IMG/VR virus record: IMGVR_UViG_3300034095_001503
Coordinates: 13,986-77,985 of that record
Direction: 5' to 3' (one strand)
Length of the DNA stretch: 64,000 bases
DNA from: a virus
The notes beneath the pieces were generated by a model. It searched no databases, was not told the DNA's origin, and was given only the letters and a program-made list of their open reading frames with translations. Shown piece by piece: positions 8,767 through 63,890 of the stretch. Position 1 is the stretch's first letter; each line of letters starts with the position of its first letter. The position numbers and the translations under genes were made by a program.

Positions 8767-8842
8767 ATTAATATTTGTTTTATTATAAATATAGATATTT
8801 TACTGAAAGTTATTAAAATATTCAAAAAAAAAATTAAATAAA

Positions 8843-12700: not shown

Positions 12701-14968
12701 TTAGAATGTATTTTTATCATATAGTAATTCAACGTTACAAGTCCAATCAATCGTTTTACCAATCTCACCAGTAACATCAATATACATATTAGGTCCAGAT
12801 ATAACGAAACTTGAAGAGGCTGTTGTAAATTCACTCTTAATGATATAATCAACAACTCCAATTTGTGTTACTGGAGTTGCACCAGTAGAATTAACTCTTA
12901 CCCACGATGTTATTTCAGCAGCATAACCCAACATTTTATCACTTGATATTCCTCTAACGTGAGACTTAATTTGAACTATACTAGTATTAGTTGTGGCTGG
13001 GTCCATATCACAATATATCATTAAAGTCGTTGTATTATCACTCGTTTGCATACAACCACCTCTTTTATCATCTGTAACTGTAATTTGTGGATATCCAGAT
13101 GGTGAAAATTTATATTGATGTTTATCAGTTATAATATTAGTTGAACTCCATTTTTGGTAACCATTATCCGTTATTGTTGATAATATACTAGATGGTGTGT
13201 GATTAGTTTGTGATAATATAGTATTAGAAGTATCTTCTGATTTAATACCAGTTCCGTAATTTATTCCTAGTGGGTCTAATGAAATAGTATCTGTTAGACC
13301 CAAGGCTATATCAGTAACCGTTGATGTTATAGATGTTGGGGTAGACATAGTTAAAGAACCAACTCCAGTATTCTCTGTGATATATGTATAACCAGTAAAT
13401 GCTGATGAACCAGAAACAACATTTCCAGATGAATCTAAACCTAAGTTAATTAAGCTAGTACCACTTCCAATAGTTTTAATATTCAATGCATTCGTATAAA
13501 CAGTATTAGCTGATGTACCAGTTATACCCTCACCAAAAACAATCGTATTCGTATTGGTTGCACTTGAATTTCTACCATGTACAAATGATTGAAGACCAGA
13601 TGCTACACTACCAGAACCTCCACCAGCATGACTATAAGCACCACTAGCTGTAGTAGCAAAACCTTCAGCATGTGACATTTGACCACTTGCTAGTGTAACA
13701 GAACCTTCAGCATGACTATAATTACCAGTTGCTGAATTACCATTATTTTGTGCATGTGAAAATATACCACTAGCTATAGTTGACCCACCTTCAGCGTGTG
13801 AACCAACACCAGATGCTATTGTGTTACTACCTTCAGCATGTGACCATGTACCACTAGCAATCGTACTATTACCTTCAGCATGACTTGTTGTACCAGACGC
13901 AATTGTACCATTACCTTCAGCATGACTATAAGCACCACCAGCTACCGTGAAATTACCTTCAGCATGCGATGTATTACCAGATGCTATTGCTACAACACCT
14001 TCAGCATGTGAATTAGCACCACTAGCAATAGTAGCGTTACCTTCAGCATGTGCTGCATAACCAGTAGCAGTTGTACTTTCACCTTCAGCATGTGTTCCTC
14101 CTGGTCCATTAGATATGGTGAATTGACCCTCAGCGTGAGAGTTAACTCCACCAGCATAAGTTGTTTGACCTTCGGCATGACTATTATTACCTATGGCTTG
14201 TGTGTAACTACCTTCAGCATGAGAAGCTGTACCACCAGCTATTGTTTCTGTACCCTCAGCTACAGAAGTATCACCAGTGGCAATACTAGCAGAATTTCCT
14301 AATACAGCTGAATTAGCACCAGTACCAGCAGTCCATATAGTTGAACCAGATGATGAACCATTATATTGCCACTCACCCATTCCTTCAGAATCCAAACAAG
14401 TCCAAACATAACCAACTTGAGGGTTTTCTGTTATAATAAGTCTTTGTGTTCTTGTAATACCAGAAACATCATTCCATATAGTTCTACCAGTAAAATCTAA
14501 ACCAATTGTTTCTAAAATTTGTAATTGTTGTGATGTTATATCACCACTATAAGCACCACCACCTAAATTAGTGAAAGTATTAGCATACATTGAATAACTA
14601 ACACCAGTATAATGTGTATACCCAGTGTTTCCATCAATATTAAATAAACTACTAACATCTGGTGTAAATATTGCACCAGTATTTTGTGTTGTAGCTGAAT
14701 TTGATGGTGTGATTGCAGACAAACTTGAATCACCTAAACTCATTCTAGTATCAGCCCATGTGAAAATTGTTGTTCCACTATTTCCAGAGAAAGTACCAGT
14801 AAGATTATTAATAGTTTGCGTTATTGAACTTAAATTTGTATTAGGTCCAGTTGGTAAATCACCATAAGGCACACCAAAATATGTCCCACCAGATAATATT
14901 GTTGTAGTTTCTATTCTTTGTTTTACTTGTCTATTGTCAGAAAAGTCTAATTTTGTTCTAAATCCCAT
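12701..14968 (-). CDS. Fibre/adhesin-like protein with 14-aa SHAEG repeats (YadA-head-like beta-roll)
   Basis: About 16 ASGxxSHAEGxxT repeats. Start placed at ATG 14968 (MGFRTKLDF) because the promoter motif lies at 14987-14994. Confidence 0.8.
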   Translation of the reverse strand: MGFRTKLDFSDNRQVKQRIETTTILSGGTYFGVPYGDLPTGPNTNLSSITQTINNLTGTFSGNSGTTIFTWADTRMSLGDSSLSAITPSNSATTQNTGAIFTPDVSSLFNIDGNTGYTHYTGVSYSMYANTFTNLGGGAYSGDITSQQLQILETIGLDFTGRTIWNDVSGITRTQRLIITENPQVGYVWTCLDSEGMGEWQYNGSSSGSTIWTAGTGANSAVLGNSASIATGDTSVAEGTETIAGGTASHAEGSYTQAIGNNSHAEGQTTYAGGVNSHAEGQFTISNGPGGTHAEGESTTATGYAAHAEGNATIASGANSHAEGVVAIASGNTSHAEGNFTVAGGAYSHAEGNGTIASGTTSHAEGNSTIASGTWSHAEGSNTIASGVGSHAEGGSTIASGIFSHAQNNGNSATGNYSHAEGSVTLASGQMSHAEGFATTASGAYSHAGGGSGSVASGLQSFVHGRNSSATNTNTIVFGEGITGTSANTVYTNALNIKTIGSGTSLINLGLDSSGNVVSGSSAFTGYTYITENTGVGSLTMSTPTSITSTVTDIALGLTDTISLDPLGINYGTGIKSEDTSNTILSQTNHTPSSILSTITDNGYQKWSSTNIITDKHQYKFSPSGYPQITVTDDKRGGCMQTSDNTTTLMIYCDMDPATTNTSIVQIKSHVRGISSDKMLGYAAEITSWVRVNSTGATPVTQIGVVDYIIKSEFTTASSSFVISGPNMYIDVTGEIGKTIDWTCNVELLYDKNTF
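13570..14290 (-). repeat. 42-nt (14-aa) SHAEG coding repeats
   Basis: ACCTTCAGCATG recurs at ~42-nt spacing on the + strand. Confidence 0.85.
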
Positions 14969-28497: not shown

Positions 28498-28521
28498 CAA
28501 AAACAAAAACAAAAAAAAAAT

Positions 28522-29265
28522 ATGTGGTTAGCAAGTAATGATACTCAAAGTAGATATGAAATGGCAGTTAATGAAGCGTTGACTGATGATAATAAATTTA
28601 AAACATTTAAAAGCGATTCAAATTATAATTGTATTGTAGGTATGAGTGAACAATGGCAAGCACCGTTGTTCTATAAATTTATTGAAGAAAATAATAAAAC
28701 AATTTTTGATAAACTTGATTTATTTAAAAATAACGACTCAATAGGTTCACCAGAAATTTGGGTGTCAGAAAACGGTTACTCTATGTCACCAAACACGTTG
28801 AGATATGTTAAAACTTTGGTTGATATAGAAAATGCTTTTGGTTCACTAAAAGGTTTTGTTATTGCTGAATTAGGTATTGGCTATGGAGGTTTATCTTTTA
28901 TCATCAATACCAATAATGAATTAAAAGATTATGTACTTTGTGATTTACCTAAAGTGGAAGAATTAGGTAAAAAATATTTATCTTCTTTCAACTTCACTTC
29001 AACAAATGATAGAAATAAATACGATAAATTTGATTTGTTTGTTAGTGAGTTTTGTTTATCAGAATTTAATGATGAGGGTATTTATAATTTTTATAATGAT
29101 TTAATTTTAAAATCTGATAGAATTTATTTAACTATGAATCTTCATGATGAAATTAGAAAAGAAACTTTTTTAAATAAAATTAAAGAAGATTTTGATATCA
29201 CAATTTTAGATGAATACCCAAAAACTCATTGGCCAAATTACATCATAATAGGTAATAAAAAATAA
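28522..29265 (+). CDS. Putative sugar O-methyltransferase (SAM-dependent)
   Basis: IGSP...SPNTLRY, ELGIGYGG (SAM motif I), YVLCDLP, FCLSE. Confidence 0.75.
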   Translation: MWLASNDTQSRYEMAVNEALTDDNKFKTFKSDSNYNCIVGMSEQWQAPLFYKFIEENNKTIFDKLDLFKNNDSIGSPEIWVSENGYSMSPNTLRYVKTLVDIENAFGSLKGFVIAELGIGYGGLSFIINTNNELKDYVLCDLPKVEELGKKYLSSFNFTSTNDRNKYDKFDLFVSEFCLSEFNDEGIYNFYNDLILKSDRIYLTMNLHDEIRKETFLNKIKEDFDITILDEYPKTHWPNYIIIGNKK

Positions 29266-34622: not shown

Positions 34623-34646
34623 CACCCATATAAAAAAAAAATAGAA

Positions 34647-45750: not shown

Positions 45751-47610
45751 TTATCTTAATTCGTTAACATTAAATGTTGGTACACCATCAACTCTTACGT
45801 GACCGTAGAATCTATTGTTAACCACTTTTTTAGCGTAACGTGTCATAATACCTTTAACTGGAGCAAAGTTAAATGGATTGTACATAGTTGGAGTTAATTG
45901 TAAAGGCACGTATGGTGCGTAGATATAACCAGTATCCAATAATGATTTTCCTTTGTGACCGATGATTACTGAGAATGCTGGTGCATAAGGGTCACGGTAC
46001 ACTTGGTAACGTCCACTTAAAGAACCGATTCTTTCAATACCCATGTTGTATTGGTCTTGCTCTGGGTTAGCATCAGATACGTGGAAGTATTCTAAATCGT
46101 CAAAGATTGCAGAGATTTCAGAAGAAACCACGATGAAGTTTGCACCACCACGAAGTGTTGATTTATGGATTTGAGCAGAAACTTGGTTTAATCTAGTGAT
46201 TAAAGTTTGATTCCATTCTTTTTGAGTATATGGGTTTGCAGATGTAGCAGCTTTTCTCCATCCGTTATAATCCCAACGTAATTGCCATGCAGCAGCTTTA
46301 CGGATATCTCTAAGGATTTCACGGTCAATCTCAGCAGCAACTTGTTCAGATAACATAGCAGTTAATTCAGCTTCAGCATCAATGTTGTGGAATGCACTAA
46401 CATCTTGTGCTAACTCTGGAGACCATGTAGCTCTTAATTTTCTTTCTTCTACAGATACAACAACTTCGTCTAATCTGAAAGATACTTCTCCCATTTCAGT
46501 TTCAAGCTCTAATGAAGCGTATTCAGCCCATGCAGCAGTGAAAGTGAAAGCAGATACAGTTGTTGCAGATGCACCAACATATCCATCATAAGTAGCAGTA
46601 CCAGGAGTGATATTTGTACCAGCAGCAGTTGTTCCAACTGGGTGACGTAAATCTAACTCTACATAACAAGTACCAGTACCATCAGTTAATGAACTAGAAC
46701 CAGTTACGATACCTTTACCATATTGTTGAGTAACTAAACGGAAAGGAACTTCTTTACCAGCCTCGATGATTTGGTTACCGTCTCTATCTAAGATAGCAGC
46801 ACTAGTTACAACGTGTAATGAAGCTAAGAAAGATTCAGTATCCATGTTGTTACCGTTAGCACCAGTCATTACTTCTCTACCGTTGTTTGTAACGTTTTTA
46901 GAGAAACCAGTGATTCCTAAGATAATACCTCTTAATGAACCATCAGTTGCAGTTGCACCTGGAGACATAGCAGCAGTAGCTACAGTATAAGAACCGTCAG
47001 TTCCTAAAGTGTAAACAGCAGAACCACCAACTTGGATAGTAAGAGTACCTTTAGAGTTGTCAAATAAACCGTCATTGTAGAAAGCATCATAAAGATTTTT
47101 TCCTACGAATGGAGTTACAACACAACCACCAGCACTAATACAAGAAGGCAATGCAGCTCCAACTGGAGTACCATTGTTAAGACCACCTAAACCAGTGTGT
47201 GCAGAAAATTGAGTATTATAAGCACCACCATTTACGTCATAATCAGAACCAGCATTTCCAGCACCGTCAACACGACTAGAAGTTTGTGGAACGAAGAAGA
47301 ACAATTTACCAATTGGCATGTTCATAGCTTGTACAGATACGATATCGTTAGCTAATAATTTAGAGAAAACTCTACGTACAATTGGGAAAACTACAGTTTC
47401 GAAAGAACCAGAGTTAGTTGCAGTTGTAGCTTCAGTTAATAATGAAGACGCTTGGTTTTCATATAATTGAGCGATGTTTTCTTTTACGTGTCCTCTAAGA
47501 CCGTCAAGGAATCCTAAAGAATCCCATTTTGTTTGTGTTTCCAAACGAATAGCTTTCATGTGGTTTAAACCGATGTTACCTACTTGTCCAGATGTTAATA
47601 AATGTGACAT
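45751..47610 (-). CDS. gp23: Major capsid protein, T4 gp23-like
   Basis: FPIVRRVF, VSVQAM..P.G, RKLRATWSPELAQD..AFH.IDAEAEL, EIDREIL, YAPYVPL, GIMTRY. Confidence 0.97.
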   Translation of the reverse strand: MSHLLTSGQVGNIGLNHMKAIRLETQTKWDSLGFLDGLRGHVKENIAQLYENQASSLLTEATTATNSGSFETVVFPIVRRVFSKLLANDIVSVQAMNMPIGKLFFFVPQTSSRVDGAGNAGSDYDVNGGAYNTQFSAHTGLGGLNNGTPVGAALPSCISAGGCVVTPFVGKNLYDAFYNDGLFDNSKGTLTIQVGGSAVYTLGTDGSYTVATAAMSPGATATDGSLRGIILGITGFSKNVTNNGREVMTGANGNNMDTESFLASLHVVTSAAILDRDGNQIIEAGKEVPFRLVTQQYGKGIVTGSSSLTDGTGTCYVELDLRHPVGTTAAGTNITPGTATYDGYVGASATTVSAFTFTAAWAEYASLELETEMGEVSFRLDEVVVSVEERKLRATWSPELAQDVSAFHNIDAEAELTAMLSEQVAAEIDREILRDIRKAAAWQLRWDYNGWRKAATSANPYTQKEWNQTLITRLNQVSAQIHKSTLRGGANFIVVSSEISAIFDDLEYFHVSDANPEQDQYNMGIERIGSLSGRYQVYRDPYAPAFSVIIGHKGKSLLDTGYIYAPYVPLQLTPTMYNPFNFAPVKGIMTRYAKKVVNNRFYGHVRVDGVPTFNVNELR

Positions 47611-47643
47611 ATTGTTTTTTTTTTATTTTTGTTATTGTTATTA

Positions 47644-48867
47644 TTATCTTTTTTCAACTCTGTTAATCAAATCCATGATTCTCTTTGTTGAAGGGTCAAC
47701 GTATGCAGTACTTTCATTTAATTGTTTTGAAATACTAGTAGTTGCTTCCTTAATGATTTTACTTTCTACTGATTCTGAAATTGGTTTTCTGTTCTCCAAT
47801 TCAACTGCAATAGTTTTATGTAATTTTTTAGATTCTTTAAGATTAGAAATATCATCAAATCTTTTTAGAATACTTTGTTTTTCAGCTTTAGTTGTAGAGT
47901 GCTCTGTAAACAATCTTGTAATATAAGTCAAGTTTGAATTAAACACTACAGTTTCAACTAACTTATTTCTAAATTCTTTAAGAGCTGTTCTGAATTCTTG
48001 ATTCTCAGTCTGTAATTTTTTAGCTTCAGTTAATAAGCTGTTATATTTTTTTGCTGTTTCAGAAACAATTTGTTTAGCTTTGATAGATTCTCCAAGTCCT
48101 TCACGTTTTAATTCGTCTGGGAAGTTGTTAGGTTTAACTGAATTCATGCGACCATTTTTCAATGTATGTTGCATATTTTCTTCAATTTCCTCTTCTTCTT
48201 CTTCTTCGTCACCTAATTCAGATTCTTCTTCTTCAGATTCTTCTTCTTCTTCGTCACCGAATTCAGATTCTTCTTCTTCAGATTCTTCTTCGTCATCACC
48301 CATTTCAATGTCGTATTCAACATCAGAATCGTCTTCTTCATCATCACCACCTAATTCGATAGGTTCAATTTCAGAATCAACATCCATGTCATCACCACCT
48401 TTTAATGAATCTAGTTTAACTATATATTCACCAGGTTCTGTAACGTTTAAGTGAAGTTCATCACCAACAATTTCGATTTCGTCTTCACCGCTTAATTTTT
48501 TGTAAATTGCGATTACATCTTCATCGCTTGCTCCAGTCATATCAAGTTCTTCTGATGATTCATCATCGTCCATTCCCATTGCACCCATAGCTGGTAATTC
48601 TTCATCACCAAATTCTGAGTCTACATCTTCGATATCACTATCTGCATTCAAGTCATCTTCGTCTTCTTCTTCTTCACCATCTATTGGTGTTAAAGGATTG
48701 ACTTCTTCTTCTTCATAAGTCGCTTCTTCAAGTGACTCTTTCACAACACTATCAATTTCTTCTTTAGCAACGCTACGAAGTATTTCTTTTGTGTTTGCAT
48801 TAAGAGCGTTTTGGATATTTTTAATATCCAAAAGAGCTTCTTCAAGTATTGATTTTTTTTCTGCCAT
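47644..48867 (-). CDS. Prohead core scaffolding protein (gp22-like)
   Basis: Lies between protease and capsid genes; very acidic centre and C-terminal coiled coil; many (L/I)xE sites. Confidence 0.8.
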   Translation of the reverse strand: MAEKKSILEEALLDIKNIQNALNANTKEILRSVAKEEIDSVVKESLEEATYEEEEVNPLTPIDGEEEEDEDDLNADSDIEDVDSEFGDEELPAMGAMGMDDDESSEELDMTGASDEDVIAIYKKLSGEDEIEIVGDELHLNVTEPGEYIVKLDSLKGGDDMDVDSEIEPIELGGDDEEDDSDVEYDIEMGDDEEESEEEESEFGDEEEEESEEEESELGDEEEEEEEIEENMQHTLKNGRMNSVKPNNFPDELKREGLGESIKAKQIVSETAKKYNSLLTEAKKLQTENQEFRTALKEFRNKLVETVVFNSNLTYITRLFTEHSTTKAEKQSILKRFDDISNLKESKKLHKTIAVELENRKPISESVESKIIKEATTSISKQLNESTAYVDPSTKRIMDLINRVEKR

Positions 48868-48986
48868 TTTATCTTTTATTTATTTTATTCTTTTATTAGA
48901 TAAGCACAAGATTTCTCTCATTTGTTAATAAATATGTATTATTTTATCAAAAATCATTTTTTAATTAAAAAAAAAATATTTTTTGG

Positions 48987-49712
48987 TTAATCAGTTAAAA
49001 ATTTATCTAAATCATTTAATAGATTTTCTTTGATGATTGGTTTCTTCTTTTCAACGTTTTCAACGTATGGAGTCATTTCTTCTCTATTTCTACCAATCCA
49101 TGCGTCTGGTGTAGATGGTGCAGTAACAACGTCCCAACAAATTATTTCAAAATCGTCTTGAACTATTTGTTCACCATCTTTTCCTTCTTTAAGAGAACCA
49201 ACACCACGTGAAGAAACACCAATCTTGATTCTATTTCTTAATAAGTTAGCAACTTCGTCACCTTTTGTAGATACGATACCATAATTAATAAAACCAGGTG
49301 TCATTAAGATTTCCATCTTACCCATAAGAGTATGACCTTCCCACCATGTTTCAACAATATTATGTGATATTCTATCACCAGCAATAATTGATGACTCTGG
49401 GTGGTCTAATTCACCTACTGCTCTACGTTCACGTATTGCTTCTTGATATAATCTGTCTTGTGATTTAAGGATTGATTCTGGATATATCCTACCATTTCGG
49501 TTTAGGATACCATACTTTTGTAACACTACGTATACAATAAGTGGTTCAACGATAGACATTTTGCTACCAGTATCTATTTTTTTTATTTCGTTTATGAAAG
49601 GTTGATTTCTTGGTTCGTCTGGACTAATGTATCCAGCATCGTGTTCAATAAGTCCACCCCAACCGCTTTCACCACGTTTTACTATTTTAAAGTCTTTATA
49701 ATTTATATCCAT
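48987..49712 (-). CDS. gp21: Prohead protease, T4 gp21-like
   Basis: NRNGRIYP, GELDHP, SH, GVSSRGVGS, WDVVTAPSTPDA; ATG at 49712. Confidence 0.95.
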   Translation of the reverse strand: MDINYKDFKIVKRGESGWGGLIEHDAGYISPDEPRNQPFINEIKKIDTGSKMSIVEPLIVYVVLQKYGILNRNGRIYPESILKSQDRLYQEAIRERRAVGELDHPESSIIAGDRISHNIVETWWEGHTLMGKMEILMTPGFINYGIVSTKGDEVANLLRNRIKIGVSSRGVGSLKEGKDGEQIVQDDFEIICWDVVTAPSTPDAWIGRNREEMTPYVENVEKKKPIIKENLLNDLDKFLTD

Positions 49713-49752
49713 GATAAGTTTGCTTATATAGATATAAATATGTTGGTTAAAT

Positions 49753-49773
49753 AAAAAAAGCCCCAATGGGGCT
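49753..49773 (-). terminator. Intrinsic terminator
   Basis: Minus strand AGCCCC-ATT-GGGGCT-TTTTTT. Confidence 0.8.
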
Positions 49774-49777
49774 CTTA

Positions 49778-50221
49778 TTATATTTTTTTCTTATTAAAAT
49801 TAAATGTTTTATTGTTTTCAAAATTTGTCTTTATCAAATTTTCTGTTACCGATTCTAATTTGTCTTTCATGTAATCTGATGTTACCGACATTTCTTCGTT
49901 TAAGAATAATGTCATCTCACAACTCATAAAACTACGTTTCCCGTATCTTATACCAGATTCTCTGATATCCAAATCAACTATAGTTCTATTGCCATCAAAA
50001 AAACAATCCTCTTGTTCATCAAAAATTTTGAATAATGATTGTTTTATTTTCTTATTCAAATTCCTAATTACTTGATTGTAATTTACACCAATCTCTTCTG
50101 TGGGTTGAGCCCATGAAGAAATGTTGATATAGATGGCTTTTGGGTTCTTATTGTTTACGCTACCAAAAACTACATTATAATTTTTAAATTTAGTTGTTTT
50201 AATTTCTTTTCCTTTTTTCAT
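49778..50221 (-). CDS. Hypothetical protein
   Basis: 147 aa; has its own host-sigma-type promoter. Confidence 0.75.
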   Translation of the reverse strand: MKKGKEIKTTKFKNYNVVFGSVNNKNPKAIYINISSWAQPTEEIGVNYNQVIRNLNKKIKQSLFKIFDEQEDCFFDGNRTIVDLDIRESGIRYGKRSFMSCEMTLFLNEEMSVTSDYMKDKLESVTENLIKTNFENNKTFNFNKKKI

Positions 50222-50266
50222 ACCTGGTTTTTATTCAAATATAAGCAAAAACCAGGTATAAGTCAA
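50220..50266 (-). promoter_or_regulatory. Host-sigma promoter with a 13-bp inverted repeat covering the start codon
   Basis: TTGACT-N17-TATATTTG; arms ATACCTGGTTTTT and AAAAACCAGGTAT(G). Confidence 0.65.
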
Positions 50267-50271
50267 GTACC

Positions 50272-50601
50272 TTAAAATTTACCCCAAAGAGCTAACCCAA
50301 TTCCAATGATAATCTGTACAAACGAAATAATTGCAATTGCAGCAACCCAACGATTTTTTTGTTTATATATTTCATCTTTAGCCTCTTTCATTTGAGATGG
50401 AGACCATATTTCACCAACTTTCTCAATCCATAAGGCGTTTAAGTTAACGGTTTTTTCAATATTTTTAACTTCAGTAAGTTTTTGATTCAATTCACCAAAC
50501 TTAGTATCCATATCTGTTCTCATCTTTTCGTGGTTTTCGTTAAGACGCTCTAATTCTTTAAGTACTAATTTACTATAGTCATTCCAAGTTTCTTCTGCCA
50601 T
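50272..50601 (-). CDS. Coiled-coil protein with a C-terminal transmembrane helix (holin/XhlA-like architecture)
   Basis: WVAAIAIISFVQIIIGIGLALW at the C-terminus. Confidence 0.6.
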   Translation of the reverse strand: MAEETWNDYSKLVLKELERLNENHEKMRTDMDTKFGELNQKLTEVKNIEKTVNLNALWIEKVGEIWSPSQMKEAKDEIYKQKNRWVAAIAIISFVQIIIGIGLALWGKF

Positions 50602-50602
50602 T

Positions 50603-50839
50603 TTAATTAAATTTAATATCTTCTAATATTTTCATAATAGTTATACACATAGTTTCATAACATTTTATTTTTGATTGCTCAGTATCAGCTGTATCAACCG
50701 TTTTTTTGCCATCATCAATCATGTTTTTTAATTTTTTTAAAACATCTTTGTATTGAACATCACTTATGTGTTCAATACTACATAATCTTTCGGTTAACGC
50801 CCTTAACTTTAAAATATTATCACTTGGAACAGTTTTCAT
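50603..50839 (-). CDS. Hypothetical protein
   Basis: 78-aa ORF in the operon. Confidence 0.65.
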   Translation of the reverse strand: MKTVPSDNILKLRALTERLCSIEHISDVQYKDVLKKLKNMIDDGKKTVDTADTEQSKIKCYETMCITIMKILEDIKFN

Positions 50840-50851
50840 AATTTTTGTTAT

Positions 50852-51637
50852 TTATTTAAGATTATTTCTAAGTTCAACTAATTTAGAAATATTTTTAGTG
50901 TAATCTTCATTAACTTCTTGTTTATCATTCAACAATTTATCTTTTACTTGTAATAATTTGTCTTTTGCGTCTAAACTAGATTCTTTAAGTTTCTCATTGA
51001 TTAAATCAATACATTCTCTAAGTGTTTTTGAATAAACTTCTTTTTTCTTAACATCATCTGAATCAATAAGTGCTTTTAATATTTCTTTATCTGATTCATC
51101 CAAATCAGAATATTTCTCATTGTATTTATCAACCATAATTGACGAAATTAAACTATTTGGTAAACCAGATGATTCAAAAATTTCTTTAGGTTTATTAGCC
51201 AATATATAGTCAACCACGTTGCTAGTGGCCTCTACAATAGTGTCAATAGTTTTTGGTGTTCTTTTTGTGAAGATAAGAGTTGATATATTTTCATGTAATG
51301 ATTTATGATTGTAATCTAAATCTTCTTTAAGTAAATCACCTTTATCACATAATGTAATAAACTCAGCCAAATACGTATTAAGTTCAACCATTCTTTTCTT
51401 ATCAAAATAAGAGAACAATGCAATATTTTCTTTTACAAATTCAGTTGCTTTTTCTCTGTTTGATTCTATTTTGTTTTCTATGTTAGAGATTACTAAAAAC
51501 TGAGTTTTTAATATTTCATTCTCTTTAATAGTTTTAACGTATTTTTTGAATAAATTAATTGATTCAGCATCTTTTGTTGCGATACCTTCAGAAACCAATT
51601 CGTTAAATATGTTTTTTATTTTACCGAAGTTTTTCAT
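50852..51637 (-). CDS. Hypothetical helical protein in the head module
   Basis: 261 aa immediately downstream of the portal gene; late motif upstream. Confidence 0.75.
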   Translation of the reverse strand: MKNFGKIKNIFNELVSEGIATKDAESINLFKKYVKTIKENEILKTQFLVISNIENKIESNREKATEFVKENIALFSYFDKKRMVELNTYLAEFITLCDKGDLLKEDLDYNHKSLHENISTLIFTKRTPKTIDTIVEATSNVVDYILANKPKEIFESSGLPNSLISSIMVDKYNEKYSDLDESDKEILKALIDSDDVKKKEVYSKTLRECIDLINEKLKESSLDAKDKLLQVKDKLLNDKQEVNEDYTKNISKLVELRNNLK

Positions 51638-51684
51638 ACTTTGTTTTTTTTATTATAAATATCTTATTTTACTTGTAAAAGCTA

Positions 51685-53721
51685 TTATTCTTCTAACATT
51701 TTATCAATATCACCAATCATATTATCAATATCTTTATTTATCTTTAAATTTTGGTTATAAATTTTAACATTTTCAACTTTTTTAGTTTGGTCTGGTTTGA
51801 TTGTTTCAACCAATGCATCAACAAATCTATTTTTATATTTATCGCTTCTTTGGTTTAATTTTCCAGATAAAACTTGTTTTCTTTCAGTCAATAATTTTTC
51901 CATTTTTTTAATTGATTCAGCAACTGGTTCAGCTTCTGTAGCTGCCTCTAAAGCACCAACATCACCACCAGCTTCTGTATCAGCAGCAGCTTCTTCACCT
52001 TCAGCCCCAGCTTCAGCCCCAGCTTCATCACCGAAATCTAGGTCTTCACCACCCATTCCACCGCCTCCGAAGCCTCCACCGCCTCCACCGCCAATAGCAC
52101 CACCTTCAGCGTCTCCACCTTCAGCTGCACCACCACCACCGTTTAAAGCAGCTTCAAAATCACCATAGATTCTATCAACATTGTCAAACATACCAGTATG
52201 TTTAATAACAGCAGAAGTATTAGCCAATTCAGCAGAAGCAGCTTTCTCCATACGTTGTTCAAGTAAATCTTGTTTGATTTCATCATCAGACCAACCCATA
52301 ATTTCTCTATGAGCACGAGTCCATGACATAACACCAAATCCATTACCAATATCAGATACAGCATCTTTAAGAAGTGTAACTTTATTTTGTAAGTGTTCAA
52401 CTTTAAGCATTTCAGCTTGTGTTGATGGATTATTAAGTGTAAGTGTAAAATTATCTAAATCATCCTCAAAACCTAAAAGGTATAAATGGATAATAGCAAT
52501 TTTGTTTAATTCTTGTAGGATTGATTGTTGTATTCTATTTATCGTTCTAGAAAAACGAATATCTTGAATTGCTAAGTTTTTACCATCACCAGTTGTCTCA
52601 TCAAAACCTAAAAATGGTTTAGGAACTCTCAATGCTGTAAATAAATTACTTCTTAGGTATTCAATATCAGCAATTTGGTCTAAGTTAGACGCACCTGGTA
52701 AAGTATCGATAGGGTTTGGTGCGTTCTCATCCCTTACTGGAATAAAGAAATCTTGGTCATTTGCCAATTGATTGTAACGTAAATCGATTTGTCCAGTTTG
52801 TGGGTCAACGATAGGCATACGTTTAAATCTATCAGCGATAGCGTTTACGTATGGTTCAACATCAGCATCATCAATATTACCAACATAGATTTTGTATACA
52901 CGTCTTTCTGGTGCTCTAGTTACACGATAAACAAGCATACTGTCCTCTGATAATAATAACTGTTTCCAAATACGTCTAGCCTTCTCTAATACAGATGTAC
53001 CGTAAGGTAAACGTCTATCATCACCCAATAATCTAAAGTGAGCAATTTGCCATGAATTGAATTCAACATCACGACCTCTCCAAAAGAATTTTACTTTATC
53101 TCCAGAAGAAACTTCGTTATCTGGTAATTCTCTACCACTAATCATATCGAATAAACCAGACTCTCTTCTTTCCATTTCGTAGTTAGGCATTTGTTTTGCA
53201 CCAACGATACCATTATCAGCATCAATGTTCAAATAAACAAAGTTATCACCGTATTTACATGTATTTCTAGTCCACATTGGTCCAGAAGTATGGAAATCTA
53301 ATCTATTGAAAAATAAATCTTCTAATATTGTTTTTACACGTTTACTATCAGAGTATATATTCATCATTTTACCTTGGTCATTTAGAGTTGTTGATTCCTC
53401 CATCATAACGTCCAAAGCCGCTGCAATTGTTGGATAGAACTCCATAGCTTCAAAATCGGCATAAGAACCAATACGTGTTGTTTCGTAGTTGATTGATTGT
53501 TGGAATAATCCACTTTCAACTTTCTTCCAAACAGAACCTAAATATTTGTTTTGTTGTGCTTGTAATTTAGCTGATTCAAATTCAGCTTTATTATCTGTTT
53601 TCAATAACTCACCATTACCAATATTGTATCGTTGAGTTGATGGTTGTTTTTTTGGTTTTATACCGTCTGGGCTAATTACTTGCCCTAATCTTTGGAATAT
53701 AGTTAAATTTCTTTCTGCCAT
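51685..53721 (-). CDS. gp20: Portal protein, T4 gp20-like
   Basis: YGTSVLE.AR..WKQL.L.ED..LVYRVTRAPERRVYKIYVGN, DFFIPVR, IDTLPG, ALRVP; Gly/Glu-rich C-terminal linker. Confidence 0.95.
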   Translation of the reverse strand: MAERNLTIFQRLGQVISPDGIKPKKQPSTQRYNIGNGELLKTDNKAEFESAKLQAQQNKYLGSVWKKVESGLFQQSINYETTRIGSYADFEAMEFYPTIAAALDVMMEESTTLNDQGKMMNIYSDSKRVKTILEDLFFNRLDFHTSGPMWTRNTCKYGDNFVYLNIDADNGIVGAKQMPNYEMERRESGLFDMISGRELPDNEVSSGDKVKFFWRGRDVEFNSWQIAHFRLLGDDRRLPYGTSVLEKARRIWKQLLLSEDSMLVYRVTRAPERRVYKIYVGNIDDADVEPYVNAIADRFKRMPIVDPQTGQIDLRYNQLANDQDFFIPVRDENAPNPIDTLPGASNLDQIADIEYLRSNLFTALRVPKPFLGFDETTGDGKNLAIQDIRFSRTINRIQQSILQELNKIAIIHLYLLGFEDDLDNFTLTLNNPSTQAEMLKVEHLQNKVTLLKDAVSDIGNGFGVMSWTRAHREIMGWSDDEIKQDLLEQRMEKAASAELANTSAVIKHTGMFDNVDRIYGDFEAALNGGGGAAEGGDAEGGAIGGGGGGGFGGGGMGGEDLDFGDEAGAEAGAEGEEAAADTEAGGDVGALEAATEAEPVAESIKKMEKLLTERKQVLSGKLNQRSDKYKNRFVDALVETIKPDQTKKVENVKIYNQNLKINKDIDNMIGDIDKMLEE

Positions 53722-53767
53722 AATTTTTTTTATTAAAATATAATTAATTTATTGGTAAAATAAATAG

Positions 53768-54004
53768 TTATTCAAGATAACCACACTCTACATAGGCAAA
53801 ATGTGCTTGTTCATGATTTACCACTTCTAAATTATATACGTATGTTGTTATCCAATCTTGACCTTGTGAACCAGCTACTGCGTCACAATAGAATGGTCTA
53901 CCAGTAGATTGTTTTTTTGATAAATCATTAGGGTTTGGTGACCATTTATATAAAACGTTACCACCAGCACTTTTTAGCATGAATACTTTTTTCTCTATTG
54001 CCAT
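53768..54004 (-). CDS. Hypothetical protein
   Basis: 78 aa between terL and portal. Confidence 0.65.
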   Translation of the reverse strand: MAIEKKVFMLKSAGGNVLYKWSPNPNDLSKKQSTGRPFYCDAVAGSQGQDWITTYVYNLEVVNHEQAHFAYVECGYLE

Positions 54005-54012
54005 TTTAATAT

Positions 54013-55779
54013 TTATTTAATTTTTCCAAATAACCAAGCATATTCACCTTTAGGGTCTTGTACATTTTTATATGCACTATGATTGGGGTTTATTTTCTTT
54101 TCAATTTGTTTTGTTTCTGGGTTAATAGTTGACACTGTAGGTGATACATTAGCTGAAGAAGCCCAACTAGATAACATTGCTTTGGTTTGTTTCTCTAATT
54201 TTTCTAGATTTTTAAACGAATGTTCCAAAACCCATAAAGCCATACCCAAAGACATAAGTAAATCATCATGGTAGCCCTCCATGTGGTCTGGTCTACCGTT
54301 TTTATAGATAAATGTTTTCATTTCTGAAATCATTCTACTTGAACGAATCTTAACACCATTTGTTCTAATCATATATTCTAAATTAGAAATCATTGGTAAA
54401 CGTACATTTGTTGCATGAAAACCAGGTATCTTGTTACTATTGCTTCTATCATATGATGTTAACTCTCTTTGTCTAGCTGAAAGTATTTTCCCATTAGTTG
54501 AATCATAATGTAATCGTTTGTATTCGAATTCTAATAATTTAAGTACTGTAGAAACACCCATACCACCAGTAACATCGACTACCGTATAAGACTTGTATAA
54601 ATTACCATATTCTTCAACTATTTGAGCCAACAAATCTGGTTGTATTTTACCTTGGTATTCCATTACTTGTTCCATGGTAGTAAAATCTATAATAACCATT
54701 GTAGACGCATCTTCACCATCACCTCTGGATACATCGACACCCATTATGTATTGGTGACCTTCTTGGGGTTCTTCCCATATCCATATCTCTTGTTCTAAAC
54801 CAGCAGTGTATTTTGGTTGTTTTACATTGTTTTTTTCATGGAAATCGATATATTCTTCATTGATTACATTACCCCCAGAACCAATAAATGACACATCTAA
54901 CTCTTGTGCAATCATTTTGGCATCGTTGTTCATACCTCTACACATTTCTTCATACCATGTAGATGTTGGTTTCCACCCATCTTCAATCATTCTAGTATAA
55001 GACACAAAAGTAAATTCATATTCTTTTGATACTTCATCACCTTTTATCCAACTTAAATCTTTATTGTAACGTAAATCTTCAAACCATTTCATCTCTACAA
55101 TGTTGAAACTATTCTTTTTGTTTCTTGCTTGGTCGTATGTTTTATAATACAATGCATCCATACCATTAGGTGTTGAAATAAGTGTTGCTCTACCCCCAGT
55201 ACCCAATGCAGTAAGTGCCGCACCAAATACTTCAGCTCCGTTATCAATATAAGCTGCCTCATCCATAATAAGGAATGTAGGTGTAAAACCCCTCAAGGCA
55301 TCTTTAGAAGTTGCTACTGCTTTTACACGACTACCGTTAGGTAATTTAATCTCTTTCTTTGAATCTGTAAGGAAAATTGATTTACCCTCGTTTTTAGGGT
55401 TGCCATAATATTCATGTCCCCATATCCACCTAGGTAATTGATTTAGGAAATCTTTAATCTTTGCCAAAAACTCAAAAGCTAACTCTTGCTTATTGGCAAT
55501 AATTAGAATATTTTCTGGGTTTTCAGAATCAGCAAAACCAACTTTGATTGACATATATGCTGCTGTTGTTGTTGATACACCAGCTTGACGTGGTTTTGTT
55601 ACAATATTAAAACGGTGTTTTTCGTATGCACTAATAATTTCTTTTTGTCGAGGGAATAGCTTAAATGGGACAAAACCCTCTTGAGTTTTATCAAACGTTT
55701 CCAAATATGTTTCAATAGCATATGTCGGTTGGGTAAGACATCTTGCGTATTCTTTAAATATTTCTTGTGTTGTTAGCAT
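54013..55779 (-). CDS. terL: Terminase large subunit, T4 gp17-like
   Basis: FPRQ, KPRQAGVST, LIMDEAA, ISTPNG, QELDVSF, GVDVSRGDGED, HDDLLM. Confidence 0.95.
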   Translation of the reverse strand: MLTTQEIFKEYARCLTQPTYAIETYLETFDKTQEGFVPFKLFPRQKEIISAYEKHRFNIVTKPRQAGVSTTTAAYMSIKVGFADSENPENILIIANKQELAFEFLAKIKDFLNQLPRWIWGHEYYGNPKNEGKSIFLTDSKKEIKLPNGSRVKAVATSKDALRGFTPTFLIMDEAAYIDNGAEVFGAALTALGTGGRATLISTPNGMDALYYKTYDQARNKKNSFNIVEMKWFEDLRYNKDLSWIKGDEVSKEYEFTFVSYTRMIEDGWKPTSTWYEEMCRGMNNDAKMIAQELDVSFIGSGGNVINEEYIDFHEKNNVKQPKYTAGLEQEIWIWEEPQEGHQYIMGVDVSRGDGEDASTMVIIDFTTMEQVMEYQGKIQPDLLAQIVEEYGNLYKSYTVVDVTGGMGVSTVLKLLEFEYKRLHYDSTNGKILSARQRELTSYDRSNSNKIPGFHATNVRLPMISNLEYMIRTNGVKIRSSRMISEMKTFIYKNGRPDHMEGYHDDLLMSLGMALWVLEHSFKNLEKLEKQTKAMLSSWASSANVSPTVSTINPETKQIEKKINPNHSAYKNVQDPKGEYAWLFGKIK

Positions 55780-58195: not shown

Positions 58196-58592
58196 GTGTT
58201 TGTTTTTTATATTGTAATATTAGGTCTTTTTCGTATAGTTTGGATTCAACTGATTCAGCATCCTCACCAAATTTAAAACAAAGTCTTTTCTCTGGGTAAG
58301 CATCATAAGCATTTATGTTTTCCCAAGCCAAAGCTATAACATCATCAATTGCATCCCAAACAGCAAACGTATCACTATCTTGAATAACATCTAAGTTTAG
58401 TTCAGATTCTAATCTACCAACTTTTTTAATGTAATGGTCATGTGGTGCAGATGGTCTTCCAGATGCTGGAAAAGTATCCCAATCATCACCATCAATACCT
58501 TTGGTAGTATCAGAAAAGATAAATTCATAAATGAAATTACCTTTGTAATCTTTACCAACTCTATTTACATATATTAAAAAAAGTTCTTTCAT
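58179..58592 (-). CDS. Hypothetical protein
   Basis: 137 aa; overlaps both neighbours. Confidence 0.75.
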   Translation of the reverse strand: MKELFLIYVNRVGKDYKGNFIYEFIFSDTTKGIDGDDWDTFPASGRPSAPHDHYIKKVGRLESELNLDVIQDSDTFAVWDAIDDVIALAWENINAYDAYPEKRLCFKFGEDAESVESKLYEKDLILQYKKQTHEKEK

Positions 58593-60475
58593 TATTTACT
58601 TTCCCAAACTATACGACCTTCGTTATCTTCTATCCTTAATCTAGAGTTAGGGTATTTTCTCTTCATATCTTCGTAATGAGCTGGTATTGCATCTTTAATT
58701 TCGATACTGATATCTTGACCAACTACTCTATTGTTATCAATAGCAATTATTGACCAAGGACCATGTTGAGAACCACCTCTAACACCTTTCATAATATTAT
58801 TCCAAACACCTTCATTAATTGCTTTTGGGTCTGGTGTAACCGCTGGCATTGGTAAAAAAGGTTTATTTTTTCTACTTGGTGCTATATTAGGTTGCACTTT
58901 ATCTGGAGAAGGAACCACTTTTGGTTTAGTTTGCGGTTGAATCATTGGTTCAGTATCATGATTAAAAGTTTCTTGTATTTTCATAATTAAATAGTTTTTA
59001 TCAAAGGTACTATTTTTTTCATTAAAAACCAAATTTTCACCAACAATTTTAGAAACTGGTTTTGATGACCACATTTTACATGACCAATATTTAGGTGTTG
59101 TTCTATCTTTTGCTTGAGAACATTTATGTCTTGCTCTGAAAGATTTTTTATTTTTTGGATTATCTCTTTTGATTTCCATATTAGCATCACCAAAATTAAC
59201 CTTTACAACGTTTCCTTTTTTGTTTTTAACATAAACTTTGAATTTCTTGTTTTTAACATCACCAGAACTTGGTTTACCCAATTTAACTTCTTTACCATGA
59301 TATTCAGCTTCATTCATATTTACGTTTTCAACAGAACCGTATTCATCTTCATAACCACCTTCAGTTTCACCATCATAGTCTAAACTATCATCATATTCCA
59401 TAGTTGCTTCTAAGAAGTGATATACCTCTTCTACATCATCAGCAGAAGTTGCTAGATGGTCAACAGCCCATGCGTGTCCATTAGCTATCAATGTATCAAC
59501 ATTGTTATAATCCATTTTTAGAATTTCAGTTGCGGCATGTGCTATAGTTTTAAGATTTTGCCAAAACATATAATTGTTTGATGAAGCGTTAGGTAATGTA
59601 GACACTGTATTATCAATACCCATCTCATTTGAATGTGATAAAAAGTCCATGGCTAAATTTCCATCACCTTTACCCAAAGCAGCAGCCGCAGCATTGTTAT
59701 AAGTTGATTTATTTAATTCATCAATTCCTTCTTCTTTGGTTAATTTATCCCATTGTTTTTTATCTGGATAACCTTTATCACCTGGTTGTGCTGCTGGTCT
59801 ACCTTCATCATTCTTTTTAGCAATATTACCCCATAAACTTTCTTCTAAAGTTTCTTCATCATGTTTGAATTCAGCTTCTTTGCTACCTTTTGGTGCAAAT
59901 AAACTACTTCTTTTTATTTGGTCTTTATCCAATATGAAAGCACCTTCTTGTAAACCTTCTTCATCAGAATTTTCAAGGTCACCCATATCACCACCAAACT
60001 CATCACCAGACTCGTCAGAATCACCAGAATCATTGTTGCTATCATCTTCATTATCTTCACCATCATCACCAGATGTATTAACTTTTTTGATTATATCTTT
60101 TCTGTCTTCTTCATCCATTTCAGCAGTATGAGTTGCTGACAATAAAGAGTTTATAGCAAATTTTTCCAAATCAAAATCTGGTTGACCTTGTTCGTCAGTG
60201 TATGCTCTAAGAGACTCACCTAATTTACCAGTAAGTTGTTGTATGAATTTTTTAGGGTCAGTTTCTTCGTCAGCTTCTACACCAGCATCAAATGGTTCGT
60301 CTTTAAATGGTTTATTGTCATTCTCTGGTGCTGGTTCTTCACCCCCAAAATCACCGAAACCAGCGTCATCGGCTGGTTCGGATATAGGTTCCGCTGGAGC
60401 TGGTGCTGGAGCCGCTTTGGCTGGTGCATCAATCTTCAACTTATATTTTATTTCGTTTATTTTTTCGTTGCTACT
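58592..60475 (-). CDS. Multi-module head-internal protein; probably the -1 frameshift extension of 60457..61455
   Basis: No nearby ATG start; the frame opens just upstream of the A10 run. Contains a KVNFG...SFRARHKC...YWSC module and many xxE sites. Confidence 0.7.
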   Translation of the reverse strand, partial: SSNEKINEIKYKLKIDAPAKAAPAPAPAEPISEPADDAGFGDFGGEEPAPENDNKPFKDEPFDAGVEADEETDPKKFIQQLTGKLGESLRAYTDEQGQPDFDLEKFAINSLLSATHTAEMDEEDRKDIIKKVNTSGDDGEDNEDDSNNDSGDSDESGDEFGGDMGDLENSDEEGLQEGAFILDKDQIKRSSLFAPKGSKEAEFKHDEETLEESLWGNIAKKNDEGRPAAQPGDKGYPDKKQWDKLTKEEGIDELNKSTYNNAAAAALGKGDGNLAMDFLSHSNEMGIDNTVSTLPNASSNNYMFWQNLKTIAHAATEILKMDYNNVDTLIANGHAWAVDHLATSADDVEEVYHFLEATMEYDDSLDYDGETEGGYEDEYGSVENVNMNEAEYHGKEVKLGKPSSGDVKNKKFKVYVKNKKGNVVKVNFGDANMEIKRDNPKNKKSFRARHKCSQAKDRTTPKYWSCKMWSSKPVSKIVGENLVFNEKNSTFDKNYLIMKIQETFNHDTEPMIQPQTKPKVVPSPDKVQPNIAPSRKNKPFLPMPAVTPDPKAINEGVWNNIMKGVRGGSQHGPWSIIAIDNNRVVGQDISIEIKDAIPAHYEDMKRKYPNSRLRIEDNEGRIVWESK

Positions 60476-61455
60476 TTTTTTTTTACAGTACCTTCAGATA
60501 ATGAAGTAATCATTTTGTCTAATCTTTTGATACTTTCTTCCATAGAATTTAAAATAGGAAAATCACCACCATCAATTTCACCATTATGATTAGCATCTAT
60601 TTTGTATTGTTTACCACTTAATTCTTCATTCATTTGTGTTAAAATAGATGCAATTTTACCTAAATCAGTAATAGTTCCACCTTCATAAGCCAATGATACC
60701 ATTGAAATATTCTCTGGAGTTACTTCCATACCTCTTTCAACTAATTTAGATTTAAGATATTCAACAAGGTCAAATTCATCATGACTTATTTCATTGTTAG
60801 CACCATCTTCTCTAGCCATCATTTCTTCAATAGCTTGTTCAAATTCATTCAAACCTTCTTCAACATCATCACCCATCATACCTTCATTTTTTTCAAAAGT
60901 TTCTGGGTTTCTGCCTTGTTTGTTAGCAGTAGCGTAGTAAGCACTTTCACCATCATCACCATATTGTTTCTCAAACTTGTTTATAATTTCTTTGTTTTCT
61001 TCAAAATTGTTTTCACCAGAAAAACCATTTCCTTCCATTTGAGAGAAACCACCAGCTCTAGCGTTTTCAGATAATAAATTATCATCTTCGAATACGTTGA
61101 TATCACCACCTTTATTAAAAGCTTCAGCCAAAGATTTAAACTTAAAGTTTAATTGTTTGATTGCTCTTGCATAAGTAGGGTAAGATTCATCTTTTTTATT
61201 TTGTAAACCACCAATATATTTGAAATCTTCCAAAACCAAACCAGATTTTTTATCTGTTCTTTTGATATAATATTCATGATTTTCTCTAACAATAGCATAT
61301 GCGTTATCATCTGGTCCAATCTTAGTTAATTCAACAGCTGAATTTGTTTTGTTTTCATTTTCATTTATAGGTTTGATACCCATAAGAGATAATTGACGTT
61401 CAAGGATTTGATTTCCTTTAAGACCAACTGGACTAATTATTTGTTTATTTTTCAT
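60457..61455 (-). CDS. Hypothetical head-internal protein (short form)
   Basis: 332 aa; INE, LSE, LNE and MNE sites; EF-hand-like IDANHNGEIDGGDF. Confidence 0.8.
   Translation of the reverse strand: MKNKQIISPVGLKGNQILERQLSLMGIKPINENENKTNSAVELTKIGPDDNAYAIVRENHEYYIKRTDKKSGLVLEDFKYIGGLQNKKDESYPTYARAIKQLNFKFKSLAEAFNKGGDINVFEDDNLLSENARAGGFSQMEGNGFSGENNFEENKEIINKFEKQYGDDGESAYYATANKQGRNPETFEKNEGMMGDDVEEGLNEFEQAIEEMMAREDGANNEISHDEFDLVEYLKSKLVERGMEVTPENISMVSLAYEGGTITDLGKIASILTQMNEELSGKQYKIDANHNGEIDGGDFPILNSMEESIKRLDKMITSLSEGTVKKKVATKK
60475..60484 (-). promoter_or_regulatory. A10 slippery site (putative -1 ribosomal frameshift or transcriptional slippage)
   Basis: GTA AAA AAA AAA GTA in frame 0, five codons before TAA; the -1 frame reads KKKSSNEKINEIKYKLKIDAP into the 615-aa ORF. 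Confidence 0.65.
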
Positions 61456-61912: not shown

Positions 61913-63409
61913 TTAATTTGATAATTGTGCTTTTATAGTTGAGTGTGATTGATAATTTTCCACCATAAAATCAGATATATCTAAATGATTTAATAAACTC
62001 AAATCATCACCTAATTCTCTAAAGAATCCAGAAGATTTATTGAAACCTAATTTAGGTAAGTCAAATGGTTCTCTAGTTCGTGTTGGAATACCAAACTCAT
62101 CACATACCTTTGTAAATTCAGAATCACTCATCCCTTCTTGTATTTTAGTTAAATCCAAACTAGGGTTCTCATAACACATACAAACTCGCTCATCAACTTC
62201 TAAGTATCTACCAATTTGTTCCAATGCTTGGTCAACGTGATTTGAATACAAGTGAACATCACCCAAGTTACCAATCAATTCATCTGGAACCATATTAACC
62301 ATTTTACCAACAATCTCAAGTAATAAACCATAAGAAGCAATATTAAATGGTAAACCTAAGAATGTGTCTACACTTCGTTGATTCCACATTAATGAGATTG
62401 CTCTACGTGGAATATTAAATTTATCTAAAAAATCGTGTGATGGTAATGCCATTCTATCCCACGGAAATTGTTTATCTTTTGGATGATAATTATAACGGAT
62501 ACGCCATCTTTCTTCTTGACTCAACTCTCTTGTATAAACTTGAAATCCATAATGACAAGGGGGAAGTGTCATTGAATCCAATTCTCCAACATTCCAAGCA
62601 TTTACCATTAATCGTCTTGAGTCTGGATTTGTTTTAATGTCGTTGATTAGGTTTTGGATTTGGTCTATACCACCAACATATTTGTCAAACTTATCATCAA
62701 TTACTTTAGCAACTTGAATTGGACAAAAAGATTTTTCATTGTAACCAAGTGTTATATTTTTATAGTAAACTTTTTTACCTTCATCCTCATCACTGTAAAG
62801 AGATTGGTCAGAATCTTGTATTGGAGTTATTAACCACTCAGTACCATTAGCAAATGAATGTAAATCGCTCCATTTAACAGCCCAACCATTATCAGTTTTG
62901 TGTAAAAAACCTCTTTGTTTAACATCTTTCCATCCACCCCAATTTCTCCATTGCTTACCATAAATTGGACCTAACTCACCCCACTTTTTAGCAAACGCAT
63001 CATTTGTTTTGATATAGTTAACGAATTCTTCTTTTGAATATGTTTCAAACTCATACTCATTAGTTTCGTGATTATAATATGAACTACCATATTCTATTTT
63101 AGCTATCTCACCTAATTCCCAATATCGTTTACAATATGATTGGTAAGCATCACCATCCCAAATATGACAATCATTATCAACAAGGAATTTAATGTTTGTA
63201 TCACCTCTTAAAAACCAAATTAACTCGGTTATAATACCTTTCATATACATCTTCTTTGTGGTCAGAAGTGGAAAACCATCACTCATTTTATGACGAATTT
63301 GTCTCCCAAAGACAGAAATGGTACCCGTTCCAGTTCTATCACCTTTGCGAGTACCATTTTCTAAAATGTCTTTTAATAAATCTTGATAAGTTTTATCTAA
63401 ATTATTCAT
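61913..63409 (-). CDS. thyA: Thymidylate synthase with large insertions
   Basis: DRTGTGT, FPLLTTK, ELIWFLRG, GPIYGKQWR, DSRR, LPPCH, QRSVD.FLG.PFNIASY, GDVHLYSNH. Confidence 0.97.
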   Translation of the reverse strand: MNNLDKTYQDLLKDILENGTRKGDRTGTGTISVFGRQIRHKMSDGFPLLTTKKMYMKGIITELIWFLRGDTNIKFLVDNDCHIWDGDAYQSYCKRYWELGEIAKIEYGSSYYNHETNEYEFETYSKEEFVNYIKTNDAFAKKWGELGPIYGKQWRNWGGWKDVKQRGFLHKTDNGWAVKWSDLHSFANGTEWLITPIQDSDQSLYSDEDEGKKVYYKNITLGYNEKSFCPIQVAKVIDDKFDKYVGGIDQIQNLINDIKTNPDSRRLMVNAWNVGELDSMTLPPCHYGFQVYTRELSQEERWRIRYNYHPKDKQFPWDRMALPSHDFLDKFNIPRRAISLMWNQRSVDTFLGLPFNIASYGLLLEIVGKMVNMVPDELIGNLGDVHLYSNHVDQALEQIGRYLEVDERVCMCYENPSLDLTKIQEGMSDSEFTKVCDEFGIPTRTREPFDLPKLGFNKSSGFFRELGDDLSLLNHLDISDFMVENYQSHSTIKAQLSN

Positions 63410-63869: not shown

Positions 63870-63890
63870 TTTTCTTTTTTTTTATTTATG

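Follow-up and report, generated by a model that had tools for sequence, protein, structure and literature searches.

Two reading frames meet at an A10 run

The window analyzed here is a 64,000-nucleotide (nt) stretch of viral DNA, positions 13,986 to 77,985 of IMG/VR record IMGVR_UViG_3300034095_001503, and all positions below are counted from its first letter. Its minus strand carries two overlapping open reading frames, ORF1 and ORF2, that meet at a run of ten A residues (A10). ORF1 and ORF2 very probably form a single gene that is recoded by a programmed -1 shift at A10; which machine slips, in what ratio the two forms are made and what the protein does are inferred. The features of the locus are collected in Table 1.

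ORF1 ends GGT ACT GTA AAA AAA AAA GTA GCA ACG AAA AAA TAA, and its stop lies six codons past the run. Re-reading of the minus strand returned the same end of the 332-amino acid (aa) ORF and the same position of A10 as an earlier note on this DNA. The note had placed the TGA that closes the -1 frame four codons before the run; the actual distance is three codons (AGG TAC TGT). The shift has to fall between this TGA and the ORF1 stop. The corresponding overlap windows of relatives measure 16-70 nt, and the run lies inside every one. The A10 run is the only homopolymer of nine or more within any coding sequence of the 78-kb contig.

Joining the frames at the run gives a protein that reads ...SEGTVKKK-SSNEKINEIKYKLKIDAP..., and its length agrees with the approximately 954 aa expected beforehand. 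The product includes the predicted I-N-E tripeptide just after the slip site, a candidate prohead-protease site. The downstream ORF is in the -1 frame and has a TTG as its only nominal start, both as previously described.

Table 1. Features of the recoded gene and of the adjoining head module, in window positions (aa, amino acids; TerL, large terminase)
Feature	Position	Strand	Remarks
ORF1, short form, 332 aa	60457..61455	-	conserved N-terminal domain, variable middle, conserved C-terminal helix ending ...SEGTVKKK
A10 slippage run (plus strand: T10)	60475..60484	-	frame 0: GTA AAA AAA AAA
Overlap window, -1-frame TGA (60496-60494) to ORF1 stop TAA (60459-60457)	60457..60496	-	shift has to fall here
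ORF2 frame (-1), 633 open codons, stop 58594-58592	58592..60493	-
TTG, sole nominal ORF2 start	60437..60439	-	Leu codon of the conserved KYKLK motif
I-N-E codons ATA AAC GAA, ORF2 frame	60452..60460	-	[LIV]-[NTDS]-E motif ahead of (T)KYKLK; includes ORF1 stop TAA
Whole recoded gene	58592..61455	-	long form 954 aa: 327 aa of ORF1 through KKK + 627 aa of the -1 frame
Basic Cys/Trp module (..KVYVKNKKG..FRARHKC..YWSCKMW), ORF2 residues 392-475	59069-59320		phrog_7595 (unknown function)
T4-type head module, downstream of ORF2	45751..55779	-	Peptidase_S77, Gp23, Portal_T4 and Terminase_6N matches
TerL	55779..54013	-	Terminase_6N
Portal	53721..51685	-	Portal_T4, 2.5e-73
Prohead protease (gp21-type)	49766..48987	-	Peptidase_S77, 9.5e-25
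Putative scaffold	48867..47644	-
Major capsid protein (gp23-type)	47610..45751	-	Gp23, 1.4e-72

The run and the frame break are conserved

IMG/VR was scanned with ORF2, which returned 262 related loci, and more were obtained from a second IMG/VR scan and one metagenome scan. The analysis counts the 132 loci that have both the conserved ORF1 N-domain and the conserved ORF2 block. These loci were drawn from IMG/VR, JGI, ENA and NCBI metagenome contigs, representing many samples and assemblers, and they contain 72 distinct junctions of 90 nt each. Overall the proteins of this family share only 40-75% identity; compared with those of the window, identity is 45-77% for ORF1 and 55-98% for ORF2.

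ORF2 is in the -1 frame at 132/132 loci. The distinct junctions have runs of A10 (67 junctions), A9 (3) or A11 (2), and none is shorter than nine. The final nine positions of the run are 100% A, and at the flanking positions the majority base reaches merely 35-60%. The codon that precedes the run varies in the amino acid it encodes (TTA, GTA, CCA, TCA, ACA, ATA) and always has A in the third position, which indicates selection on the nucleotides rather than on a Lys-Lys-Lys peptide. Judged from these alignments, the conservation of A9-A11 together with a constant -1 offset is far beyond chance. Because the run and the offset are kept in a family this diverged, they represent a conserved signal and not a sequencing error.

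The earlier note had named a conserved run and frame break in relatives as the decisive check, and the -1 break with A9-A11 at every locus supplies it. The note had also considered that A11 in reads or relatives would expose a homopolymer error. Contigs from three independent studies bridge 60353-60592 without an indel in the run; these contig-level sequences all have A10, and the relatives all keep the -1 offset. The comparison confirms that the frame break is real and not a sequencing error.

ORF2 is very probably read as a continuation of ORF1

An explanation without recoding would treat the locus as two separate genes, with ORF2 starting at the TTG or elsewhere, or else as an assembly error or a pseudogene. 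The TTG is present at 60439, and gene callers enter ORF2 relatives as separate proteins. However, the TTG codes for the Leu inside the KYKLK motif, which is conserved also in relatives that use other Leu codons, and in 12/54 distinct relatives the ORF2 frame runs for its first 100 codons without any ATG, GTG or TTG. Peptide conservation in the -1 frame starts at the run, with the pattern KKK-S/T-x(0-6)-[LIV]-[NTDS]-E-x-(T)KYKLK-[LIV] followed by a Pro/Ala linker. In the window and many relatives, the [LIV]-[NT] codons of this motif share nucleotides with the ORF1 stop (xTA-Axx contains TAA), and the motif before TKYKLK is retained even in lineages whose ORF1 stop lies elsewhere. On this comparative evidence, independent initiation of ORF2, which the earlier note had listed as a possible refutation, is excluded. 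Against an assembly error stand the identical break at 132/132 loci from many samples and assemblers and the A10 of the three independent studies. An explanation without recoding has hardly any chance of being correct.

In about 15 single-member protein clusters (P0124-P0137, 584-805 aa), ORF1 and ORF2 are fused in frame, and KKK stands at the joint. Over the junction, P0126 is identical to what locus L069 encodes when read in -1, as expected of an A11 version of that locus. By their sequences, these fusions confirm that the joined protein is the meaningful reading. As each occurs only once, compared with more than 3,200 split ORF2 relatives, they appear to be either rare genome variants or homopolymer errors. 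The contig of P0124 was not found in the IMG/VR or JGI metagenome scans.

The fusions, P0126 among them, are also what DNA-level phase variation would leave behind. By this mechanism, replication slippage gives mixed A10/A11 genomes and the long form is made only from A11. Phase variation is very improbable: the fusions are few and possibly erroneous, the run is out of frame at all 132 loci and in all three independent assemblies, and a lytic phage wanting both forms in one cell would not obtain them so.

The length of the run and the slipping machine

RNA polymerase (RNAP) slippage is efficient in vivo from nine A or T residues, a threshold tied to the 9-10 bp RNA-DNA hybrid (Atkins et al. 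2016, PMC5009743). A census of internal, sense-strand A-runs covered the distinct ORFs of the same loci that have 150 codons or more, in total approximately 720 kb. The counts were 1964 for A5, 1139 for A6, 420 for A7, 106 for A8, 6 for A9 and 3 for A10, and the ratio of successive steps falls from 0.25 to 0.06 between run lengths 8 and 9. A7 and A8 runs with an A AAA AAA heptamer are thus common within ORFs and tolerated, and those with nine A's or more are nearly absent outside the junction, either avoided or put to use. In these sequences the threshold at nine matches RNAP slippage, and the census adds weight to the view of the earlier note that RNAP slippage is no less plausible than a ribosomal frameshift. 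None of the relatives has fewer than nine A's at the junction, although seven in phase make a ribosomal slippery heptamer.

The frames around the run were also compared. The two frames other than that of ORF2 close within nine codons at 72/72 junctions. Window transcripts with 9 or 12 A's would read GTA AAA AAA AAG TAG, an immediate stop. Every transcript class except +1 or +4 would therefore yield a short form.

The downstream 70 nt of the window fold at -7.4 kcal/mol (z = -0.62), in line with the earlier statement that no strong hairpin follows, and no hairpin at the canonical downstream spacing of 5-9 nt is conserved in 54 junctions. The hairpins found in some relatives begin at least 30 nt downstream, in a GC-rich stretch that encodes Pro/Ala. 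An upstream hairpin in the nascent RNA, sought as a stimulator of slippage, is not conserved either (mean z = -0.76). Shine-Dalgarno (SD)-like GAAGG or GAGGG occurs upstream in 31/72 junctions (43%) against a 20% background and coincides with conserved Glu-Gly codons.

These patterns suggest that RNAP, on a T10 template, is the likelier slipping machine, and RNAP and ribosomal slippage may act together. Several observations weigh against assigning the event to RNAP. The sole RNA run, a marine metatranscriptome (6% of words), has a depth of zero over 60416-60511. Any A run of nine or more includes an in-phase A AAA AAA heptamer, so a ribosomal -1 frameshift or poly(A) sliding could also occur there. 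The SD-like element is enriched about 2-fold upstream. The census is indirect, taken from loci chosen around the ORF1/ORF2 gene, and it would also fit a ribosomal slippage that rises steeply with run length. The preference for RNAP is held with moderate confidence.

A mainly ribosomal -1 frameshift on unedited A10 mRNA, by a tandem tRNA-Lys slip on A AAA AAA or by poly(A) sliding, is a possible but less likely explanation. The heptamer is in phase in every relative, the end of the run coincides with an ORF1 codon boundary in 69/72 junctions, and the combination of a -1 direction with a nearby zero-frame stop is classical. Escherichia coli dnaX slips on A AAA AAG, and the excess of SD-like sequences points the same way. 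However, seven A's would be enough for the ribosome and all relatives have at least nine, and hundreds of A7 and A8 runs lie untroubled within ORFs of the same phages. No structure is conserved at the spacing that is canonical for a stimulator. Most junctions lack the SD-like element, which overlies codons that are conserved as Glu-Gly.

Architecture of the short and long forms

The N-terminal ~130 residues of ORF1 are strongly conserved (alignment A1). In an AlphaFold2 (AF2) model this region consists of a short helix, a disordered loop at residues 29-35 and a small alpha/beta domain with a predicted local distance difference test (pLDDT) score of 80-86; the pLDDT of the ORF1 model overall is 65. 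An I-N-E at residues 30-32 lies in the loop, where pLDDT is below 50, and is conserved in 45/45 relatives. The N-domain is followed by a variable middle with swapped modules and then by the conserved C-terminal helix that ends at the run. The middle (residues ~135-300) is a mosaic of modules that are present or absent among relatives, such as NPWAICTASVGREDK..YEACV and F.DQYG..G...YYATANKQ.RDPETFEK. A further module is EF-hand/dockerin-like (EL.G.Q.K.D.NKNGKID..DF) and is matched by Pfam Dockerin_1 in one relative. Across the family, the length of the short form varies from 181 to 602 aa and that of the long form from 584 to 1148 aa.

ORF2 is mostly disordered, with a mean AF2 pLDDT of 45. Its parts are a Pro/Ala linker, acidic linkers, helical modules at residues 80-140 and 308-365, the basic module at 392-475 and a small C-terminal domain. 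The basic module (phrog_7595) makes up a small gene of its own in pelagiphages, roseophages, Methylophilales and Flavobacterium phages and Nitrosopumilaceae spindle-shaped viruses; the polyprotein therefore strings together modules that are independent genes elsewhere. Some relatives have an in-frame A10 inside the ORF2-type gene (L017:5065 (+), L037:6430 (+) and L136:1613 (+)). In L017 the run directly follows the conserved PDPKA that marks the border of the last module; a +1A slip there would give KKKS-stop, and the run may serve as a second slip site by which this module is trimmed off.

Database searches placed few of these parts. Megablast of the 2.9-kb region and tblastn of ORF1 against 50,697 phage records gave no match, and tblastn of ORF2 against the same records gave single-module matches only (residues 305-364 and 389-521) and no cultured relative. 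ORF1, ORF2 and the three downstream ORFs had no match in Pfam and nothing in PHROGs beyond phrog_7595. The ORF1 N-domain returned unnamed viral clusters only from the ESM Atlas, with scores below 0.8. The AF2 model of ORF1 had no PDB fold match at E <= 0.001, and profile searches with alignments A1 and A2 against PDB sequences gave no match.

Gene neighborhood and a possible role in the head

The source is an IMG/VR viral contig of 77,985 nt with an estimated completeness of 22% and a G+C content of 30%, and near-identical DNA occurs in lake-water metagenomes of at least 12 studies. The genes around the locus are all on the same strand in the order thymidylate synthase, an 80-aa ORF, ORF1, ORF2, three unknown ORFs (137, 337 and 433 aa), large terminase, portal, two small ORFs, prohead protease, a 407-aa acidic protein that is a probable scaffold, and major capsid protein. 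The ORF1/ORF2 gene thus stands immediately upstream of a T4-type head module, and the phage carries homologues of T4-type gp21, gp23 and gp20. The terminase is at most 31% identical to that of any cultured phage, which by this measure makes the virus a deep-branching, uncultured, T4-like phage. The thymidylate synthase ORF (61913-63409 (-), 498 aa) has a Pfam match over residues 6-402 that covers only 225 profile positions, which points to a large insertion or extension in this gene.

The T4-type protease, the position of the gene and conserved [LIVM]-x-E motifs suggest, with about even chances, a protein of the head core or interior that undergoes processing like that of the T4 internal proteins. 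Conserved [LIVM]-x-E tripeptides fall at predicted domain borders at ORF1 residues 32, 130 and 204 and ORF2 residues 183, 218, 395, 508 and 561, and one lies directly past the slip site. The major capsid protein has LLTE-A near residue 60, the position at which T4 gp23 is cleaved. Against a role in the head, [LIVM]-x-E is a common tripeptide, with 28 observed and approximately 20 expected in 954 aa. A comparison of neighboring ORFs for a common N-terminal leader (targeting sequence) showed none.

Other homopolymer runs of the contig

The whole contig has six runs of exactly 10 and one of 9, and none is longer. Four A9/A10 runs lie 1-5 nt ahead of an ATG, at 28511-28520 (+), 34632-34641 (+), 47615-47624 (A10, -) and 63875-63883 (A9, -). 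The genes behind them start at 28522, 34647, 47610 (major capsid protein) and 63869, with the run in place of an SD sequence. These runs may be A-rich translation leaders, or may hint at a non-SD host such as Bacteroidota. Two more runs (48967-48976 and 8824-8833) are T10 on the coding (minus) strand approximately 10 nt past the stops of the prohead protease gene and a 162-aa gene, and may be the U-tracts of terminators or other signals.

Discussion

The proposed working of the gene starts from the unslipped message, whose expression would give the 332-aa short form. A fraction of events would enter the -1 frame to produce the 954-aa long form, in which the shared 327 N-terminal residues are continued by a 627-aa chain of modules. 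Slippage of the host RNAP on the T10 template would put 11 A's into some of the mRNAs, and the fusion would arise from their ordinary translation. Transcripts with 9 or 12 A's would give a near-identical short form, and ribosomal -1 slippage on A AAA AAA may add to the amount of fusion. The protein is plausibly a component of the prohead core or head interior, where the long form would bring in cargo modules to be freed by the T4-type protease at [LIV]-x-E.

One of the closest parallels is dnaX of Thermus thermophilus, which makes tau and gamma by programmed transcriptional slippage at nine A/T residues (Atkins et al. 2016, PMC5009743). Both systems have a conserved homopolymer of at least nine as the only evident signal, two products with a common N-terminus, and nearby stops in the non-productive frames. 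In Thermus the unslipped product is the long one and slippage gives the short gamma, whereas here the unslipped product would be short and slippage would add 627 aa. The phage gene also differs in being a late/head-region gene rather than a replication gene, and RNA-level slippage is here proposed from sequence comparison.

Bacterial insertion sequence (IS) elements (orfA-orfB) and mxiE and spa13 of Shigella type III secretion have a similar layout, a short upstream ORF and a -1 ORF fused by one added base in an A/T run, and in them as here the fusion would be a minor, extended product. They belong to another gene class, and a stem-loop stimulator is neither needed nor seen in the phage gene. 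E. coli dnaX and lambda G/GT share the -1 offset and the availability of a Lys-codon slippery heptamer (A AAA AAx), and in lambda a fixed ratio of short to C-terminally extended protein serves virion assembly, to which the short and long forms may be likened. Unlike these two, the phage site lacks a conserved downstream structure, its SD-like element is inconsistent and its run always has at least nine A's, not seven. The gene is also not a tail assembly chaperone, as lambda G/GT is.

The protein resembles the T4 internal proteins (IPI-III and Alt), which carry a capsid targeting sequence (CTS) and are processed by gp21, in its setting beside a head module with the matching protease, capsid and portal homologues. 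It may be like them also in its conserved N-terminus, with a potential cleavage motif in a predicted disordered loop, and in the further motifs at module borders. To our knowledge, the T4 internal proteins are not produced by recoding. No sequence similarity to them was found, including to the T4 CTS, nor any fold similarity of the ORF1 model, and the conserved leader has ~30 residues and a folded domain compared with ~10 residues in the CTS. CTS fusions bring foreign proteins into T4 heads (PMC9026906).

More tentatively, the A10 run may be a dosing device like that of Gag/Gag-Pol. Slippage by the host RNAP would fix the ratio of a short core or targeting protein to the form with 627 aa of cargo modules. 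The long form would join the prohead through the shared N-domain, and the gp21-type protease would cut at [LIV]-x-E past the slip site and at the module borders. We regard this full scheme as doubtful.

The mechanism of recoding is of a known kind, and the gene family and its setting are new. Their novelty, as far as the sequences tell, lies in a bare A9-A11 run that is conserved throughout a very large group of T4-like and jumbo phages, all uncultured. The gene with this run lies just upstream of the head module and is no tail chaperone. No published description of the gene family or its slip site was found in the literature.

Gene callers split the gene in every assembly, and more than 3,200 ORF2 proteins stand in databases as separate hypotheticals. 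Recognition of the slip site corrects the annotation of a widespread freshwater and marine family of T4-like and jumbo phages. It also adds a large and deeply conserved natural case of recoding at a bare A9-A11 run, outside the tail chaperones. The tolerance of A8 and avoidance of A9 in these genomes are a testable hint that RNAP slips rather than the ribosome. Should the protein prove to be head cargo, the site would show how a phage doses the proteins that it packages, and should the dosing scheme be true, no large phage family before this one would have had the stoichiometry of its packaged internal proteins set by transcriptional slippage.

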